A DNA stretch of 10,820 bases from a virus (Duplodnaviria; Heunggongvirae; Uroviricota; Caudoviricetes), in the IMG/VR virus record IMGVR_UViG_2630968558_000009; one strand, 5' to 3'. A program made the translations under genes and the position numbers. This document shows positions 1 through 10,480 of the stretch, in pieces. The notes beneath the pieces were generated by a model. That model searched no databases and was not told where the DNA came from. It saw only the letters and a list, made by a program, of their open reading frames with translations. Within the stretch, counting starts at the first letter, position 1. Each line of letters opens with the position of its first letter.

Positions 1-19
1 CACAGGAGTCAAAATTGCC
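1..19. repeat. Partial direct repeat of the tRNA-Sec 3' portion; candidate distal attachment-site (att) repeat marking the left island boundary
   Basis: Positions 1-10 (cacaggagtc) are identical to 10397-10406 inside the tRNA-Sec gene; over 1-19 the match to 10397-10415 is 16/19. The window starts inside the repeat, so it may extend further left. Confidence 0.45.
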
Positions 20-67
20 ATATAACTATTTGATTCAAATCGTTTATATTTTTCTATTCTAATTCAT

Positions 68-90
68 TTATACACATCCTTATACATATA
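68..90. repeat. TATACACAT-N2-TATACATAT motif near the left end; a similar copy lies at 10254-10277 near int; candidate integrase arm-type binding site
   Basis: Left copy ttatacacatccttatacatata (68-90); right copy ctatacacattactatacatattt (10254-10277), same orientation, each within about 100-150 bp of an element end. Confidence 0.35.
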
Positions 91-135
91 ATATCTATCG
101 ATTAATTGTTACACGTATCTTCACGCACGTTAACT

Positions 136-436
136 CAGGAAAAAAATTTTTTTTCGAAAGAACTGTTCACACTGTTCACCTTTCTTTTTTCTCCTTTTAT
201 TTCAGTATGATAGGTGGTGAATAATGGGTGAAGGGTGAACATTCGATTCTTCACCTCCGGCATTCTGCCGGTGTGACTCATACCGGTGATTAATCCCCCG
301 TACTGAAATCACACAGGGAGAAAAAAAGTTTTTTTTGATTTGATTGTTCACACTGTTCACCTTTCGTTTTTCTCTTTTAATTTCAGTGTGATAACGGGTG
401 AATATACGGTGAAGGGTGAACAGTGGATTGTTCACC
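136..436. repeat. crr-like cis replication region: two direct repeats of about 105 bp carrying TGTTCACC/GGTGAACA iterons
   Basis: Near-identical units at about 136-241 and 316-422, period about 180 bp. Iterons at 164-171, 173-180, 234-241, 345-352, 354-361, 415-422 and 429-436. P4 crr is recalled as two ~120-bp direct repeats with type I octamers bound by alpha. Confidence 0.7.
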
Positions 437-454
437 TTCGGGGAGTTCAGGGAT

Positions 455-480
455 AAAAAAAGACCGGCAGATGCCGGTCA
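455..480 (-). terminator. Rho-independent terminator of the leftward operon, just past the alpha stop
   Basis: Plus strand aaaaaaa-gaccggc-agat-gccggtc; on the minus strand this is a 7-bp GC-rich stem with a 4-nt loop followed by a run of 7 U, directly after the alpha stop codon at 487-489. Confidence 0.55.
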
Positions 481-486
481 GGTGGG

Positions 487-2820
487 TCAGGTTGTTGCAG
501 GGTCGTCACATTTTGGCAGCCAGTCGCCGTAGCTTTCCTCTTTCAGCGTCAGGTTGGTCTGTATCCCCTGTTTGGTATGGCGCTTCTCGTAATTCAGTCC
601 GTATTCCTTCAGCATCACCGGCAGCCCCAGCCCGAACATTTTCAGACTGAGTACATTCCGGTAGCCGTTTGCCTCCATGTAGGCCAGATAGGCGTGATAG
701 AGGTATTTACGGTAATTGCGCGGGATGATACTGGCGTTCCCCATATACATGCCGCTGGTCTGCGGCAGGGTTTCCAGATAGCCGATAAAATCAAACGTCG
801 GGTCGGCATCCCGTTTGATGTTCAGCGCCTCGTCTGAGTTTTGCTGGGACTGAAGCAGTGACCGGGCGAGCATCGGGTCGCTGAACTTCTGCATCAGGTG
901 ACGCACGATGACCGCCAGCTCGCGGGTGATTTTGTCCTTAAGCTGCGGGTCGCGCTCCTGCGGGGCTATCTGTTCCGGGAAGTGAATAATCACCCGCCGG
1001 CGTGACACGCCGCCGCTGCGGTCGGTGAAGCGCATCGGGTTATTGTTCACGGCCAGAATCACCGCCGGGATATGCGTGGAGTATGCATCCCGGTATTTCG
1101 GGTCAACGGACACCGCATCGCCGCCGGTGATGGCCTTGAGTCCGGCACCGTCGCCGCTCCATTTTTCCTGGTCCGGCAGGCGTATCAGTGAGAAGCCAGT
1201 TAACGCGGCACGTTCACGCGGGGATTCCAGCGTCTCAATGGTGGCCGATGTGGCGTTATCCTCCCCGGCCAGCAGGGTGGCGATTTCGGCCATGATACTT
1301 TTGCCGCTGCCGCCGGGACCGGTCACCTCCAGAAAGAGCTGCCAGTCGTAGCGGTTTGCCAGCACCATAAACAGTGCGGCCAGAATCACGTCGCGTTTTT
1401 CCGCACGGCCACCGGCGGCACGGTCAAGCCAGCGCCAGAACGCGGGGGCGTGGGTTTCCAGCGTTTCCCCTTCCACCGGCGGGGTGAAATCCACATCACA
1501 CAGGGTGCGCATCCAGTGTGACGGACTGTGCGGGTGGAACGTGCCGTTCTGCGTGTCGAGCACGCCGTTACGAAAGCCAATCAGGCGGCGGGAGGGGGCT
1601 TCCTGCTGCGGAATAATCAGCTTCAGGGTGTCCACCACGGAGGCCACTTTCCCGGAGGAGAACGGCGCGCGCAGACGCTGAAACAGCCCGGCCACATCCC
1701 GGGCAAAGTCCTGTGGTGGCAGCACCTTCCAGACACCATTTTCATAGCGGGACAGAAGCTGGCCGTTGGCATCGACCGCGAGCGCCTCGCCGTAATGCTC
1801 ATAGATACGCATGGCCTTTTCGCTGGTACTCATGGCGGAAAACTCCGCTTCGCTCATGGTGTCGAACGGGCTTTCAGCCGGTGGCCGGATGGCATCATAA
1901 ATGGCCTTACGGGTGGCTTCCCCGCCGTACTGCGTGAAGGCATCATTCCAGTCACCGAAGACCGGCGGCAGGGCAACAACACCTTCACACGCATCTGCGG
2001 CTGCGGCGGCTTTTTTCTGGCCGTCACCGCTGAGGTCACGGTCAGCGGCAAGGACAATCTGACAGGCGGGATGCTTCTGCCGGGCAAGGCTGGCCAGAGA
2101 AAGGAGGTTCACGGAAGAAAGCGCCACCATCACCGTTTCACCGGTCAGGTGATGCACGGTTAGTGCGGTCGCGTATCCCTCCGCTATCCACAGACGTTTT
2201 CCGGCCTGATTCTGTCCTTCAAGGGTGTGACAGGTGCCCCTGACCTGTCCGCCTTTCAGGGTGCGCTTACGGCCGTCAGCGCTGATTAACTGAAGGTTAA
2301 CCAGTTCGCCGCTGTCGTCATACAGTGGCACCACAAGGTCACCGGCGCGCCAGCTCACGCCACCGGCTCTGTGTGTGCCGGTCAGCATCCGGCATTCCCG
2401 GCCGGGAAAGCCCTTGCGGGTCAGGTAGGCGTTACCGGTTCCGGGACGGGTTTTCGCCATCAGGGTTTGTGCCAGTGCGGCGGCGTTCTTCCGGGCAGCG
2501 TCTGTTTCAGCACCGGCGGCGGTCGTCACTGCCGGGTCAGCCGGGGGCAGGCTGCCGGTCACGGCAGCCACCTTTGTGGCCGCGTCGGACGGGGAAACAC
2601 CAAACACCTTTTCAACCAGTTTCAGGCCGTCACCGGCACCACACTGATTGCAGTACCAGGTGCCGCGCCCCTCCCTGTCATCAAAACGGAAGCGGTCACT
2701 CCCGCCACAGACCGGACAGGGCTGATGATGGTTCTTCAGCACCTGAATCCCCAGCGCCGGGAGAATACGCGGCCAGTGACCGAGCGCATGGCTGACGGTG
2801 GCGGTTACGTTCATTTTCAT
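487..2820 (-). CDS. alpha: P4 alpha-type primase-helicase (replication protein)
   Basis: 777-aa ORF, the length I recall for P4 alpha. N-terminal zinc-binding CPVCGGSD...YCNQCG, primase-type acidic motifs (EGYATA, LAADRDLSGDG), Walker A GPGGSGKS. AAGGAG Shine-Dalgarno 7 nt upstream of the ATG at 2820. Flanked by crr as in P4. Confidence 0.93.
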   Translation of the reverse strand: MKMNVTATVSHALGHWPRILPALGIQVLKNHHQPCPVCGGSDRFRFDDREGRGTWYCNQCGAGDGLKLVEKVFGVSPSDAATKVAAVTGSLPPADPAVTTAAGAETDAARKNAAALAQTLMAKTRPGTGNAYLTRKGFPGRECRMLTGTHRAGGVSWRAGDLVVPLYDDSGELVNLQLISADGRKRTLKGGQVRGTCHTLEGQNQAGKRLWIAEGYATALTVHHLTGETVMVALSSVNLLSLASLARQKHPACQIVLAADRDLSGDGQKKAAAAADACEGVVALPPVFGDWNDAFTQYGGEATRKAIYDAIRPPAESPFDTMSEAEFSAMSTSEKAMRIYEHYGEALAVDANGQLLSRYENGVWKVLPPQDFARDVAGLFQRLRAPFSSGKVASVVDTLKLIIPQQEAPSRRLIGFRNGVLDTQNGTFHPHSPSHWMRTLCDVDFTPPVEGETLETHAPAFWRWLDRAAGGRAEKRDVILAALFMVLANRYDWQLFLEVTGPGGSGKSIMAEIATLLAGEDNATSATIETLESPRERAALTGFSLIRLPDQEKWSGDGAGLKAITGGDAVSVDPKYRDAYSTHIPAVILAVNNNPMRFTDRSGGVSRRRVIIHFPEQIAPQERDPQLKDKITRELAVIVRHLMQKFSDPMLARSLLQSQQNSDEALNIKRDADPTFDFIGYLETLPQTSGMYMGNASIIPRNYRKYLYHAYLAYMEANGYRNVLSLKMFGLGLPVMLKEYGLNYEKRHTKQGIQTNLTLKEESYGDWLPKCDDPATT

Positions 2821-5423: not shown

Positions 5424-6158
5424 ATGTCTGACAACACCATCCCTGAATATCTGCAACCCGCACTGGCACAACTGGAAAAGGCCAGAGCCGCCCACCTTGA
5501 GAACGCCCGACTGATGGATGAGACCGTCACGGCCATTGAACGGGCAGAGCAGGAAAAAAATGCGCTGGCGCAGGCCGACGGAAACGACGCTGAAGACTGG
5601 CGCACGGCCTTTCGTGCAGCCGGTGGTGTCCTGAGCGACGAGCTGAAACAGCGCCACATTGAGCGCGTGGCACGCCGGGAGCTGGTACAGGAATATGACA
5701 ATCTGGCCGTGGTGCTGAATTTTGAACGTGAACGCCTGAAAGGGGCGTGTGACAGCACGGCCACCGCCTACCGGAAGGCACATCATCACCTTCTGAGTCT
5801 GTATGCAGAGCATGAGCTGGAACACGCCCTGAATGAAACCTGTGAGGCGCTTGTCCGGGCAATGCATCTGAGTATCCTGGTACAGGAAAATCCGCTCGCC
5901 AACACCACCGGCCATCAGGGCTACGTCGCACCCGATAAAGCTGTCATGCAGCAGGTGAAATCATCGCTGGAACAGAAAATTAAACAGATGCAAATCAGCC
6001 TCACCGGCGAGCCGGTTCTCCGGCTGACCGGACTGTCAGCGGCAACACTCCCGCACATGGATTATGAGGTGGCAGGCACACCGGCACAGCGCAAGGTGTG
6101 GCAGGACAAAATAGACCAGCAGGGAGCAGAGCTTAAGGCCAGAGGACTGCTGTCATGA
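5424..6158 (+). CDS. sid: Sid-like capsid size-determination (external scaffold) protein
   Basis: The track ORF starts at 5358, but that ATG lies inside the promoter dyads. The ATG at 5424 has a GAGGAG Shine-Dalgarno 8 nt upstream and gives 244 aa, the size I recall for P4 Sid. First gene of the sid-delta-psu order. Confidence 0.8.
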   Translation: MSDNTIPEYLQPALAQLEKARAAHLENARLMDETVTAIERAEQEKNALAQADGNDAEDWRTAFRAAGGVLSDELKQRHIERVARRELVQEYDNLAVVLNFERERLKGACDSTATAYRKAHHHLLSLYAEHELEHALNETCEALVRAMHLSILVQENPLANTTGHQGYVAPDKAVMQQVKSSLEQKIKQMQISLTGEPVLRLTGLSAATLPHMDYEVAGTPAQRKVWQDKIDQQGAELKARGLLS

Positions 6159-6414: not shown

Positions 6415-6987
6415 GTGACCACAATGTCATTACAGCAGGCTTTTGAGGTCTGCCAGAATAACAAAGCAGCATGGCTGCAACGCAAAAATGAGCTGGCTGC
6501 GGCCGAACAGGAATATCTGCGGCTTCTGTCAGGAGAAGGCAGAAACGTCAGCCGCCTGGACGAATTACGCAATATTATCGAAGTCAGAAAATGGCAGGTG
6601 AATCAGGCCGCCGGTCGTTATATTCGTTCGCATGAAGCCGTTCAGCACATCAGCATCCGCGAGCGGCTGAATGATTTTATGCAGCAGCACGGCACAGCAC
6701 TGGCGGCCGCACTGGCACCGGAGCTGATGGGCTACAGTGAGCTGACGGCCATTGCCCGAAACTGTGCCATACAGCGTGCCACAGATGCCCTGCGTGAAGC
6801 CCTTCTGTCCTGGCTTGCGAAGGGGGAAAAAATTAATTATTCCGCACAGGATAGCGACATTTTAACGACCATCGGATTCAGGCCTGACGCGGCTTCGGTG
6901 GATGACAGCCGTGAAAAATTCACCCCTGCGCAGAACATGATTTTTTCGCGTAAAAGTGCAGAACTGGCATCACGTCAGTCTGTGTAA
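6415..6987 (+). CDS. psu: Psu-like polarity suppression protein (in P4, capsid decoration and Rho antagonist)
   Basis: 190-aa ORF, the size I recall for P4 Psu. GTG start at 6415 with AGGAG Shine-Dalgarno at 6403-6407; the first ATG is at 6424. Third gene of the late operon, followed by a hairpin and cos. Confidence 0.8.
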   Translation: MTTMSLQQAFEVCQNNKAAWLQRKNELAAAEQEYLRLLSGEGRNVSRLDELRNIIEVRKWQVNQAAGRYIRSHEAVQHISIRERLNDFMQQHGTALAAALAPELMGYSELTAIARNCAIQRATDALREALLSWLAKGEKINYSAQDSDILTTIGFRPDAASVDDSREKFTPAQNMIFSRKSAELASRQSV

Positions 6988-7022
6988 AACTCCCCGAAAA
7001 TCCGCCTGTTTTTACTGAAAAA

Positions 7023-7065
7023 AGCCATGCATCGATAAGGTGCATGGCTTTGCATGCGTTTTCCT
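7023..7065 (+). terminator. Candidate terminator downstream of psu
   Basis: Inverted repeat agccatgca (7023-7031), 9-nt loop, tgcatggct (7041-7049), followed by tt and then gcgtttt. The T-tract is interrupted, so confidence is moderate. Confidence 0.4.
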
Positions 7066-7151
7066 GCCTCATTTCCTGCAGATCACGCCGCGCCCGACGC
7101 GGCGTGAGCGTGTCAGTGCAACTGCATTAAAACCGCCCCGCAAAGCGGGCG

Positions 7152-7170
7152 GGCGAGGCGGGGAAAGCAC
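7152..7170. other. P2/P4-type cos site (19-nt cohesive-end sequence)
   Basis: Exact match to the recalled P2/P4 cohesive-end sequence GGCGAGGCGGGGAAAGCAC. A perfect 10-bp-stem hairpin lies just upstream (tcacgccgcg-cccga-cgcggcgtga, 7083-7107). Position between psu and the int-proximal cargo matches P4. Confidence 0.8.
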
Positions 7171-7259
7171 CGCGCGCATGTATGCAGGAAATAACTTGGT
7201 TCTCCAGCCAGAGAAAGAAACTTAACTGGAGAGTTTTGTGTTTTGTTACATGGATGTGT

Positions 7260-9020
7260 TCAGGTTTTATTTATTAATGAAATACTTTTCTCTAGTGACT
7301 CCTTAACTTTTTTTACGCTATTTTTTAATTCAATAATGGCTCCACGACGAAAAGAAATTTTAATTTCATCCAGGTATGAATTTAAAAACTCATCTAGTTT
7401 TTTTAGATGAGGTAGCTCGTTGGATAGAAAGTCACAAAGATTTGAGAAGTTATATACAGACAATAGATGGTTTGAAAATAATTGAATATCATAAATGGAC
7501 CAGCTATTTTGTATGGCATTTATGATTAAATCTACATCTAAGGTTTCCAGGGCTTTATACTTGAAATCTGAATGGTATATATCCATGTCGATAGCGGTCC
7601 AACCATCGTTAACCATCTTGTTTCTTAATTCTTGTATTTTTTCTTTTTCCGTTATTTCAATATATTTTTCAACGAAAAAATTATAAAGGTCGTCCCCATC
7701 ATGTTTTAGAATGTGGAGTGGTATGCTATTAATATTTGGAACAGTTTCATGAAAATATGATTTTATTTCATGGTCACTAAAGCTAAACATATTTTGTTTG
7801 ATGGTGTTTTCATCCAAGGCATCTACACGTGGTATATATTCAGATTCTGAGAGTCTAATATAGTTATTCGTGGCAGTTAGCCATGTGGATAGATTTGGAG
7901 AATTTGATTTTAAGATTGTTTTTGTTATTTCTTCCTGATAGTCATCTTCAGATATGCTATATAGTTCGGGCCTTGCTAATCCAGCATAATCATCTTTCTT
8001 GGGAGGAGTGTTGTAAGTAAAAACATATGGAAGAATATCTTTATGCGAAATTTCATTAAAACAATATGGAGCCATTTTATTATTGTAGTTTTTATATGCA
8101 ATAATGCTTAATAAATTGTTTTCCTCTTCACTTATTTTATTTTGTTCACTTTCTGGAGTGGTTGAAATTGTTCTATATGATGATGAAACAATATTTTCAT
8201 GGAATTCATTTTCCTTATAGTTGAATTTTTCCTTAAGTATTATATGTGCACACAATGAGCTTACTAAATTTTTAATATCTATATCAGAGATATCTCTGTC
8301 TTGAGTTGTTTGTTCAAAAAATGGTAGGAGTTTTACAATGACTCTATTAATAATCCGGATATTGGTTTCTTCGAAACCTATAATTACTTGCTTAATGATG
8401 TCTCTATAATTTCCTTGTGTCTTCTCAAGCTTTTTGTCTAAAATCTCAGAAAGATTGTTTATAGAAAAATATATCTCATCGCTAATAACCTTTTCTTTAT
8501 GATTCAATGCATTATTGCTTTGCTTTGAAAAGTTACCCACTAAAATATAATCTAGCATCTTGTTATTTTGATAATTTTGTAAGCAAAAGGTTGCTATTTC
8601 ATCTCGTAAAGTTTGAGGTATACGTTCTAGATCATCAATGATAAAAACTCCGGAAAGATCTTTTAATACATAATGTTGCATTGCTCCAGCAAATGTTGAG
8701 ATTATTTTTCCAGCCAACCTCCCAGTGTTTTCTTCTTTAGTAATAGCTGTGGTTACATTTGATGCTAACTCTGTAATTATTTCGATATCAGGTGGATTTT
8801 CTAAATAAGTTACACTCAACATCTTGTCTTTAAAATCTTGTAAACTGTTTAATCCAAGCACAGATATATAAAATTGGTTCTTGTGAGAATAATATTTTTT
8901 AAATTCATGTTGAAGGAAGAATGTTTTACCAACTCCCCACTCACCATTTAACAAAATTAGACCTTCACGTTTTTCACTTAGTAATCTAATTAAAACAGAT
9001 ATTATTGCGCTTTTATCCAC
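7260..9020 (-). CDS. KAP-like P-loop NTPase with an uncharacterised C-terminal region of about 400 aa; cargo gene of the cos-int hotspot; candidate anti-phage defence protein
   Basis: 586-aa uninterrupted ORF. GTG start at 9020 with AAGGAG Shine-Dalgarno 6 nt upstream. Walker A GEWGVGKT (residues 26-33, nt 8922-8945) and Walker B-like VFIIDDLER (residues 125-133), resembling the KAP-family GxWGxGKS/T and hhhhDDLDR signatures. No hydrophobic stretch of transmembrane length and no nuclease/PLD/HEPN motif that I can identify by eye. Strongly AT-rich relative to the P4 core. Confidence 0.85.
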   Translation of the reverse strand: MDKSAIISVLIRLLSEKREGLILLNGEWGVGKTFFLQHEFKKYYSHKNQFYISVLGLNSLQDFKDKMLSVTYLENPPDIEIITELASNVTTAITKEENTGRLAGKIISTFAGAMQHYVLKDLSGVFIIDDLERIPQTLRDEIATFCLQNYQNNKMLDYILVGNFSKQSNNALNHKEKVISDEIYFSINNLSEILDKKLEKTQGNYRDIIKQVIIGFEETNIRIINRVIVKLLPFFEQTTQDRDISDIDIKNLVSSLCAHIILKEKFNYKENEFHENIVSSSYRTISTTPESEQNKISEEENNLLSIIAYKNYNNKMAPYCFNEISHKDILPYVFTYNTPPKKDDYAGLARPELYSISEDDYQEEITKTILKSNSPNLSTWLTATNNYIRLSESEYIPRVDALDENTIKQNMFSFSDHEIKSYFHETVPNINSIPLHILKHDGDDLYNFFVEKYIEITEKEKIQELRNKMVNDGWTAIDMDIYHSDFKYKALETLDVDLIINAIQNSWSIYDIQLFSNHLLSVYNFSNLCDFLSNELPHLKKLDEFLNSYLDEIKISFRRGAIIELKNSVKKVKESLEKSISLINKT

Positions 9021-9032
9021 AAAATACTCCTT

Positions 9033-10223
9033 TTAGTAATCATAATTAACGCAACCGGCTGGATAAATAAAATCGCTATACCATTGTAACATTTTTAATC
9101 TTTTCTCTAAGTATTGAGCATGATTATATGTTCCCCTAATGCTATTTTTATCAACATGAGCTAGTTGCATTTCAATCCATTTACTATCAAAACCTTGTTC
9201 ATGTAGTATTGTCGACATTGTATGTCTAAATCCGTGGCCTGTTGCACGTCCCTTATAACCAAGTAATTCGATCACTTGTGATATACTTTCTTTAGAAATT
9301 GGTTTAGTACGATTGTTACGTCCAATAAATATATAAGGATAATGGCTAGAGAGCGGTTTTAATTGATTAAAGAGGGTAATAACTTGAGATGATAAAGGTA
9401 CAAGGTGAGGACGACGCATTTTCATGCGTTCTGCTGGTATTTCCCATATTCCTTTTTCTAAATTGACTTCTTCCCATGTGGCAAAACGCAGTTCTTGTGT
9501 TCTTACCCCGGTAAGCATCACAATCTTGGTTGCATTTTTAGTGATTATGCTGCCAGTATAAGCCTCAAGATCTTTGACAAAATGAGGGAGTTCTTCTGCT
9601 GATAGAAAAGGATGATGTTTTTGCTTCGGTACAGCTAATGCGATAGCTAAATCAGGTGCTGGATTGTATTCAGCGCGGCCAGTGATGATCGCGTAGCGAA
9701 ACACCTCTCCGCATCGTTGACGTACTTTTCTGGTTTTCTCCAACGCTCCACGTTTTTCTATGCGTTTAAGTACTTCAAGCAGTTCTAGGGGTTTTATTTC
9801 AGCTATTGGCCGTTTACCAATGAAAGGAAAAACATCCTGTTCAAATGTTTTAATAATTTCTTCGCGATAAGCTAAAGTCCAGCGATCTGCTTTTGCTGCA
9901 TGCCATTCTCTGCTAACGGCCTCAAAAGAGTTTTCAGATGATAATTTCTGAGCAATTTTCTGAGCCTTACGTTCTTCTACTGGATCAATGCCATTTGCAA
10001 CCTGTTTACGTGCCGTATCGCGTTTCTCACGTGCTTCCGCGAGGCTTACAAGGTCGTAACTACCAAATGACATTAACCGCGCTTTCCCTGCAAACCGGAA
10101 ACGGAAACGCCAGCCTTTCGAGCCATCGGGATTGATAAGCAATGACAGACCTTGTCCATCGTTCAATGTGTATGGTTTGTCTTGTGGTTTTGCACGTTTG
10201 ATCTGTATATCGGTTAGGGCCAT
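9033..10223 (-). CDS. int: P4-family tyrosine recombinase (integrase)
   Basis: 396-aa ORF starting MALTD..., as P4-type integrases do, with a C-terminal catalytic region containing HGFRHT and RGTYNHAQY (catalytic Tyr). Adjacent to the 3' end of the tRNA-Sec gene. Confidence 0.92.
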   Translation of the reverse strand: MALTDIQIKRAKPQDKPYTLNDGQGLSLLINPDGSKGWRFRFRFAGKARLMSFGSYDLVSLAEAREKRDTARKQVANGIDPVEERKAQKIAQKLSSENSFEAVSREWHAAKADRWTLAYREEIIKTFEQDVFPFIGKRPIAEIKPLELLEVLKRIEKRGALEKTRKVRQRCGEVFRYAIITGRAEYNPAPDLAIALAVPKQKHHPFLSAEELPHFVKDLEAYTGSIITKNATKIVMLTGVRTQELRFATWEEVNLEKGIWEIPAERMKMRRPHLVPLSSQVITLFNQLKPLSSHYPYIFIGRNNRTKPISKESISQVIELLGYKGRATGHGFRHTMSTILHEQGFDSKWIEMQLAHVDKNSIRGTYNHAQYLEKRLKMLQWYSDFIYPAGCVNYDY

Positions 10224-10385: not shown

Positions 10386-10480
10386 TGGCGGAAGATCACA
10401 GGAGTCGAACCTGCCCGGGACCGCTGGCGGCCCCAACTGGATTTGAAGTCCAGCCGCCTCACCGGAGACGACGATCTTCC
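10386..10480 (-). tRNA. selC: tRNA-Sec (selenocysteine tRNA, anticodon UCA)
   Basis: Reverse complement of 10386-10480 reads GGAAGATCGTCGTCTCCGGTGAGGCGGCTGGACTTCAAATCCAGTTGGGGCCGCCAGCGGTCCCGGGCAGGTTCGACTCCTGTGATCTTCCGCCA: 95 nt, long variable arm, TCA anticodon, CCA end. It matches the E. coli selC sequence as I remember it. Confidence 0.9.

Follow-up and report, generated by a model that had tools for sequence, protein, structure and literature searches.

Locus and gene content

The stretch of DNA analysed in this study (the window) is 10,820 nt long, stems from the IMG/VR virus record IMGVR_UViG_2630968558_000009 (Caudoviricetes), and carries the core of a P4-like satellite. Between the cohesive-end site (cos) and the integrase gene (int) of this satellite lies one cargo gene, encoding a protein of 586 amino acids (aa). 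Judged by sequence comparison, this open reading frame (ORF) is very nearly certain, in identity as well as in defence function, to be an allele of Reve, a stand-alone anti-phage gene of the cos-int hotspot of P4-like elements. The ORF had been singled out in a first-pass annotation, made from the letters alone, as the only gene of this interval, and this was confirmed: the remaining ORFs between cos and int are of 55 and 63 aa, antisense, and not credible as genes. The claim that the gene is far more AT-rich than its surroundings was likewise correct, with a GC fraction of 0.28-0.32 across the gene (about 30%) against 0.53-0.65 in the P4 core.

At this composition, 586 stop-free codons are expected by chance with P ~5e-23, and the longest stop-free run among 500 shuffles was 146 codons. 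The ORF starts with GTG, and this start is supported by the N-termini of homologues, which begin at the equivalent residue (MNKETIISVLIR...). The stop codon of int lies 12 nt upstream of the gene start (window 9021-9035), and the spacing between int and the cargo gene is similarly short (10-37 nt) in P4-like elements of Serratia, Citrobacter, and Mangrovibacter (L002-L006). The two genes probably form one transcription unit. A scan for sigma-70 consensus promoters upstream of the Reve-family gene gave nothing above shuffle expectation, which favours expression of hotspot cargo by read-through and suggests that the gene is transcribed from int. The features of the window are collected in Table 1.

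Table 1. Positions of the Reve-family gene, its protein features, and the flanking satellite features in the window
Feature	Position	Strand	Remarks
Reve-family gene	7260..9020	-	586 aa + stop; sole cargo of the cos-int hotspot; from the ORF list
Shine-Dalgarno AAGGAG	9027..9032	-	6 nt upstream of the GTG start; read from the sequence
KAP / AAA+-like NTPase module with helical lid, N-terminal	8301..9020	-	residues 1 to about 240
Walker A GEWGVGKT	8922..8945	-	residues 26-33
Walker B with KAP-type extension VFIIDDLER	8622..8648	-	residues 125-133; aligns to PifA VVMDDLDRL
N220-I-R222-I-I-N-R226 motif	8343..8363	-	start of lid helix (221-236 in the model); putative sensor-2-type arginine
All-alpha solenoid domain, C-terminal	7263..8006	-	residues about 339-586; contains Y523-x-F-x-N527...E535
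P2/P4 cos cohesive-end sequence GGCGAGGCGGGGAAAGCAC (19 nt)	7152..7170	+	exact match, 0 expected by chance; left boundary of the hotspot
Terminator-like GC hairpin with T-run	7133..7152	-	consensus match, putative; ~108 nt downstream of the Reve stop, abutting cos
P4-type tyrosine integrase int	9033..10223	-	immediately upstream of the cargo; right boundary of the hotspot
psu (polarity suppression protein)	6415..6987	+	final P4 core gene before cos
alpha primase-helicase	487-2820	-	ORF list and annotated near-identical record
tRNA-Sec (selC)	10386..10480	-	integration target of the satellite; ARAGORN and RefSeq annotation

Identity with Reve and tested activity

Reve was named in a study of P2/P4 defence hotspots (bioRxiv 10.64898/2026.02.27.708500; v3, 19 March 2026), in which eight unannotated P4 hotspot cargos were picked randomly and cloned, six of which were protective. 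One of its cloned fragments, Syst.19_UnknownSys7 in Dataset E1 (2196 bp), aligns without gaps to window positions 6988-9183 (minus strand) with 7 mismatches (2189/2196 nt, 99.68%), and the construct and the window gene share the same flanks, i.e., the 3' end of int, cos, and the 3' end of psu. The proteins are identical in 582 of 586 aa (99.3%). The four differences (V278F, K310R, L514I, and H538Y) are conservative and all fall in variable alignment columns, where the alternative residue is present in homologues. According to the preprint (File S3), Reve consists of one gene whose product has AAA (PF13401) and KAP (PF07693) domains and finds the human ORC ATPase motor module as Foldseek top hits; the window protein likewise has both Pfam matches and ORC-like top hits.

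The phenotype reported for plasmid pFD425, the construct attributed to Reve as set out below, is strong and specific (bioRxiv 10.64898/2026.02.27.708500). In E. coli MG1655, the plating of all seven Drexlerviridae (T1-like phages) tested was reduced 40-fold to 4x10^5-fold, with an efficiency of plating (EOP) of 2.5e-6 to 2.5e-2 on Bas01, 02, 04, 09, 11, 12, and 13 in both replicates (File S4), and plaque morphology was unusual on all phages protected against. Weaker effects were seen on Bas58 (0.012 / 0.004) and Bas63, and there was no protection against lambda, Bas18-24, T5-like phages, P1, T4, T7, and others. Expression in these assays was from a plasmid with the pTet promoter induced by anhydrotetracycline (aTc), in two replicates.

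The earlier proposal of an anti-phage gene therefore holds for a 99.3%-identical protein that protects against Drexlerviridae, and the logic behind it, by which a single AT-rich cargo in the cos-int slot of P4 is a defence gene, works. The literature got there first, however. Both the test and the name of that protein precede this analysis, so the labels 'novel' and 'uncharacterised family' have to be dropped: Reve was named in March 2026, its wider family is already catalogued as PDC-S49, a candidate system listed in PADLOC-DB since 2023, and defence by KAP NTPases with an unknown C-terminus was reported in October 2025. What this analysis adds is the placement of the family, the type of its AAA+ module, the solenoid, and a subclade in P2 hotspots.

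Family placement

KAP NTPases carry the signatures GxWGxGKT (Walker A) and hhhhDDL(D)R (Walker B), and typically have two to four transmembrane helices; the definition used here is that of Pfam, of PifA of plasmid F, and of secondary citations. In the window protein, GEWGVGKT and FIIDDLER align with GAWGSGKT and VVMDDLDRL of PifA. Pfam KAP_NTPase (PF07693) matches at 3e-5 (23.8 bits against a cut-off of 20), over aligned residues 5-53 only, and AAA_22 matches at 3e-6. The KAP-typical transmembrane helices are absent, but they are typical rather than obligatory, because PifA, the founding member, has none either. The assignment as a soluble KAP-like NTPase thus stood up, all the more as 38 of 40 members of the wider family match the KAP model too (best 2.8e-13). 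A housekeeping or other named family was rejected: NCBIfam gave only a sub-threshold match to Hda (17.9 bits against a cut-off of 194.8).

Other searches place the protein in a family that has been recorded before. PHROG 4740, of unknown function, matches over the full length (1e-16), and the PADLOC model PDC-S49 matches with E=6.5e-11 over residues 22-286 (model positions 27-304 of 624, before any of PADLOC's own cut-offs on coverage and score). The PADLOC models for PifA, RdrA, QatA, and Tmn did not match the window protein, the family profile found no PDB chain sequence at E<=1, and a tblastn search of deposited phage genomes returned no match. RefSeq labels genes of the family 'P-loop NTPase fold protein' or 'AAA family ATPase'.

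When the clade profile was run with HMMER against 1.84 billion representative proteins, the number of matches was 3738 at E<1e-3 and fell to 655 at E<1e-10 and to 84 at E<1e-30, with full-length proteins of 570-610 aa in the majority; a word-index protein search with a diverse alignment mostly returned the same clade again. Named members include proteins of Yersinia intermedia, the Enterobacter cloacae complex, Klebsiella aerogenes, Raoultella, and Shewanella. In a wide alignment of forty diverse members, which are 16-33% identical to the window protein, W28, G29, G31, K32, S53, D129, D130, R133, K177, N220, and R222 are invariant, and G26, T33, G56, E132, E176, Y523, and E535 nearly so. One member (P0213) scores 40.8 bits against KAP_NTPase, its alignment covering positions 3-254 of the 293 in the profile; PDC-S49 models are matched by 39 of the 40 members (best 5e-63). 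Among distant members, one adjoins DUF4145, RhuM, and AbiEii genes and another lies among housekeeping genes.

Reve thus appears to be a divergent Enterobacterales branch of a large family of soluble KAP NTPases of ~580 aa, the PADLOC candidate PDC-S49. The latter is a single-gene candidate in PADLOC-DB (v2.0.0), flagged as defence-island-associated, and is of the same length class as the window protein, which it matches only at the E-value given above and over part of its length, whereas the relatives are matched strongly. Reve-type loci are not called by PADLOC or DefenseFinder (bioRxiv 10.64898/2026.02.27.708500), and the literature search found no experimental paper naming PDC-S49. The link to Reve would give PDC-S49 its first member with experimental support, and a mechanism solved for Reve would annotate thousands of 'P-loop NTPase fold protein' entries (655 representative clusters at E<1e-10).

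Protein architecture

Both Walker motifs named in the first-pass annotation proved to be invariant in 27 homologues (GEWGVGKT and VFIIDDLER); within Walker A, the residues G26, W28, G29, G31, K32, and T33 are invariant in the close-homologue alignment. N220 and R222 are invariant in close as well as wide-family alignments. N163, at the end of strand 4, is invariant too. By analogy with AAA+ proteins, N163 is a likely sensor-1 residue and R222, with which the lid helix opens, a likely sensor-2.

The full-length AlphaFold2 model (predicted local distance difference test (pLDDT) 76.7; predicted template modelling score (pTM) 0.45) has a five-stranded P-loop core (strands 21-26, 48-53, 124-129, 156-161, and 179-185), a helical insert at 60-120 (residues 61-123 are predicted to be helical and soluble), a helical lid, and an all-alpha C-terminal half. 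As modelled, the N-terminal module is an AAA+ module of the ORC/Cdc6/TnsC/RdrA type; its Foldseek matches in the PDB are weak and comprise ORC, Cdc6, DnaA, and NLR proteins (best E=8e-4). When residues 295-586 were modelled by themselves, the model was confident from ~339 on (pLDDT 85, pTM 0.73), and it predicts the C-terminal ~250 aa to be a HEAT-like alpha-solenoid, with no enzyme-like fold or transmembrane segment. A hypervariable sensor signature was not seen in the C-terminal half, the C-half being 60% and the N-half 65% identical within the clade.

Two negative statements of the first-pass annotation were upheld. No transmembrane segment is predicted, the highest 19-residue Kyte-Doolittle mean being 1.22, and most members of the wider family stay below 1.6. 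Profile and structure searches recognised no nuclease, TIR, Sir2, HEPN, PLD, or membrane domain in the 586-aa protein. As a defence protein, Reve is compact and acts alone; its activity against T1-like phages is strong and family-specific, and no effector can be recognised in it.

Distribution and hotspot recurrence

The flanks of the gene are conserved in 2239 of 5426 complete E. coli genomes, and the whole query including this allele group was found in only 14. A more sensitive search found a Reve-family gene in 38 of the 5426 genomes. In 33 of these it is full length, and the alleles group by DNA identity at >=99%, about 90%, about 71% (where ATCC 8739 belongs), and about 67%; the other five hold only a 355-nt remnant of the 5' end. 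The diverged allele of E. coli ATCC 8739 (70.8% DNA identity, annotated as 'AAA family ATPase') lies in the same chromosomal neighbourhood (NZ_CP022959.1:52380-54074; NZ_CP033020.1:52333-54027) and offers a test bed in native context. The unannotated remnant (~80% identity) was located in E. coli XJ5.2 (L015:5001-5355) and in four other genomes (H66-H69 and similar). In XJ5.2 it is part of a decayed island adjoining the sgc operon, flanked by HerA-like, DUF1062, and IS200 pseudogenes. The decay of an element, or an exchange of its cargo, probably left this remnant behind.

The close family (52-99% identity, about 587 aa) is present in Escherichia, Klebsiella, Serratia, Yersinia, and Citrobacter, as well as in Hafnia, Kosakonia, Pectobacterium, Shimwellia, and Mangrovibacter. 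In P4-like elements of Serratia, Citrobacter, and Mangrovibacter, which occupy different chromosomal sites, a homologue of 52-66% identity is the sole cargo between int and psu/delta. The idea of a single-gene cargo whose homologues recur in the P4 cos-int hotspot is thereby confirmed. No partner gene was found in six independent contexts of Reve-family genes.

A further subclade, 52-54% identical to the window protein, occurs in hotspots of P2-like helper phages next to the portal gene (L007:8001-9734, L013:3024-4799, and L014:723-2498). One of its members (P0041) is located between gpA, DNA methylase, and HEPN plus GmrSD_N genes on one side and the portal-terminase genes on the other, and another (P0042) adjoins a portal fragment. 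Two of the P2-like hotspots with a Reve homologue hold additional cargo: a DNA methylase and a HEPN plus GmrSD_N pair at L007:4211-7086, and a pair of Hcp and Tlde1-domain proteins, of the type VI secretion system effector type, at L013:1162-2022.

In a neighbour-joining tree (no bootstrap), the P2-borne subclade has the P4-borne Citrobacter protein as its sister and falls inside the P4-borne diversity. P4 and P2 share almost no defence genes at >85% identity (bioRxiv 10.64898/2026.02.27.708500). Together, the nesting and this near-absence of recent sharing make the distribution look like an older exchange of the Reve family between satellite and helper.

Other features of the satellite

An annotated, near-identical record gives the gene order of the element as alpha, DUF5375, Icd-like, AlpA-like, sid, delta, psu, Reve-family gene, int, and tRNA-Sec. 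The RefSeq label 'glycoprotein 3' on the gene at the sid position (L001:7425-8159, window about 5424-6158) is misleading for a P4-like capsid-size determination gene. The hairpin with T-run next to cos is also kept in the other P4 constructs of the preprint (Dataset E1), and could either act as terminator of the int-cargo transcript or belong to the cos region.

Beyond the 3' end of alpha there is a second variable, AT-rich locus, the edge of which is seen at window positions 1-486 (GC 0.345). In related P4-like elements this locus holds a RhuM-family gene (L001), BrxR/WYL (L002), STM3845 with a reverse transcriptase (L003), or unknown proteins of 244 and 440 aa (L004-L006).

Proposed mechanism and alternatives

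The explanation preferred here is that the window ORF, as a Reve allele, encodes a sensor switch that interferes with phage infection without the help of an effector; taken as a whole, it is given a probability of about 0.55. Within it, the effector-less, NTP-dependent sensor-switch architecture is considered probable, and the step of direct interference is put forward tentatively, as one that may well prove wrong. The solenoid would bind a component conserved among T1-like phages; specificity at the level of the family, with seven Drexlerviridae affected, argues for a conserved intracellular target. Binding would free the ATPase for oligomerisation, and a ring like those described for the related defence ATPases RdrA and QatA is the probable form. 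The ATP-driven assembly would itself block infection by trapping or remodelling the phage target, with no dedicated enzymatic effector taking part. EF_KAP, compared below, serves as a further analogy.

A bolder and doubtful version would generalise this to Reve and PDC-S49 as a form of immunity that dispenses with both an enzymatic effector and host killing. A soluble KAP ring would capture a T1-like protein through its solenoid and use ATP to sequester or remodel it, Y523-x-F-x-N527...E535 would be a functional (coupling or catalytic) site, and the family would have moved between P4 and P2 hotspots.

Several points weigh against the preferred explanation. The equation of Unknown7 with pFD425 and Reve was inferred from the order in File S3 (Unknown3 = pFD421 ... 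Unknown6 = pFD424, Unknown8 = pFD426) and by elimination, although the description matches. The phenotype comes from aTc-induced plasmid expression in two replicates, so that activity at native level would be an extrapolation. The fold of the NTPase module matches generic AAA+ proteins (Foldseek E about 1e-3, TM-score 0.2-0.4). Finally, sequence conservation within the Enterobacterales clade is about equal in solenoid and NTPase, and the solenoid holds a polar motif conserved across the family (Y523, N527, and E535), so that a conserved effector or interface role fits at least as well as a fast-evolving sensor. The motif may mark a coupling site or an active site.

Other mechanisms can be read into the same data. 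In the first, abortive infection as caused by PifA, a KAP ATPase would sense a phage protein and join the inner membrane, and permeability changes with nucleotide leakage would kill the cell before progeny are made. PifA, too, is a stand-alone protein with no transmembrane helices that acts through membrane depolarisation and nucleotide leakage, it has the GxWGxGKT and hhhDDL(D/E)R signatures in common with Reve, and the unusual plaques on all protected phages would be compatible with such a mode. It is nevertheless held to be unlikely: the two proteins resemble each other in the Walker regions only (BLASTP E=0.15; 46 columns aligned by hhalign), the PADLOC model for PifA does not match, no hydrophobic or amphipathic membrane segment is found at the low hydropathy given above, and EF_KAP, the one tested KAP protein with an unknown C-terminus, does not behave like an abortive-infection system (PMC12632615).

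Depletion of nucleotides, in which a trigger would set off futile hydrolysis of ATP (or GTP) by the oligomerised NTPase until energy collapse stalls phage replication, draws on the NTPase being the only recognisable domain capable of an effector function and on the invariance of all its catalytic motifs. The precedent is Tmn, an effector-less P-loop NTPase that enhances ATP turnover on sensing RIIB and for which a drop in ATP has been reported, but this protein belongs to a different, transmembrane family (YobI) and its hydrolysis is coupled to Mg2+ export; moreover, AAA+/ORC-like switches are typically slow hydrolases. Nucleotide depletion is therefore also regarded as improbable.

The resemblance to ORC/Cdc6, TnsC, MuB, and QatA would allow for an AAA+ filament or ring that loads on phage DNA, or on a replication or packaging intermediate, and blocks replication or the terminase. 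Such a role is poorly compatible with the acidity of the protein (pI 5.3 overall; 5.8, 5.7, and 5.1 per segment), and no winged-helix or other DNA-binding domain is seen in the model, where the region after the lid is all-helical and ends in the HEAT-like solenoid. The strict specificity for Drexlerviridae suggests recognition of protein rather than DNA, and action on DNA is quite unlikely.

That protection is a by-product of over-expression, with the real role in the satellite life cycle (e.g., helper exploitation) or none at all as neutral cargo, is very improbable: the aTc-induced assays in two replicates, the several unrelated constructs that also push Bas01, Bas11, and Bas12 to the detection limit, and the missing sigma-70 consensus would fit, but same-vector constructs differ in spectrum (Hailong, pFD426, spares 6/7 Drexlerviridae, with a ~11-fold effect on Bas01 only), the gene lies outside the P4 core, in the variable defence hotspot, and is far rarer in E. 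coli than its flanks, homologues occur in P2 hotspots and beside AbiEii/RhuM/DUF4145, and PADLOC independently flagged the family as defence-island-associated.

The remaining value of the Reve-family protein described here lies in its mechanism, in the link between Reve and PDC-S49, in the solenoid domain, and in the P2-borne subclade.

Comparison with known defence systems

The first-pass annotation had counted Tmn among the KAP-type NTPases, which is incorrect. Tmn belongs to the distinct YobI family, has two transmembrane helices inserted in its P-loop domain, and forms a decameric membrane complex that exports Mg2+. Membership of Reve in this family was rejected, given that the window protein has no transmembrane segment and no PADLOC Tmn match and that its insert is predicted to be helical and soluble; the two are alike in being P-loop NTPase defence proteins that are effector-less.

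STAND/Avs proteins combine an N-terminal effector, a NACHT or NB-ARC module, and a C-terminal repeat sensor. In Reve, only the C-terminal repeat-like domain of this tripartite plan is present, as no domain precedes the P-loop module, which begins at residue 20 (strand 21-26). The Pfam models for NACHT (E=0.026) and NB-ARC stay below threshold, and structurally Reve matches ORC/Cdc6 better than STAND proteins.

RdrA (RADAR) and QatA (QatABCD) are ring-forming, KAP/ORC-like ATPases of multi-gene systems with enzymatic partners (the RdrB deaminase and QatBCD, respectively), whereas Reve is a single gene. QatA, a KAP NTPase, assembles into 7-8-mers and is a DNA binder. As for RADAR, an adjacent gene for the RdrB adenosine deaminase is absent from the window, and the structural resemblance to RdrA is the sole link.

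PifA, the founding prokaryotic KAP member, excludes T7 by abortive infection, with T7 gp1.2/gp10 as its targets; Reve, by contrast, gives no protection from this phage. PifA has 741 aa and a full KAP domain (148.5 bits, against 23.8 bits for Reve). Orthology of the two was rejected, as the 46 columns aligned by hhalign lie around Walker A.

Proteins that combine a KAP NTPase with an uncharacterised C-terminal region are established as defensive, and EF_KAP depends on its Walker B motif and protects equally well at a multiplicity of infection (MOI) of 1 and of 10 (PMC12632615, October 2025). EF_KAP is a Firmicutes protein with two N-terminal transmembrane helices, whereas Reve is soluble. In architecture the two can be likened to each other, each being a single protein in which a stretch of about 300 aa, devoid of any domain that can be recognised, comes after the KAP P-loop.

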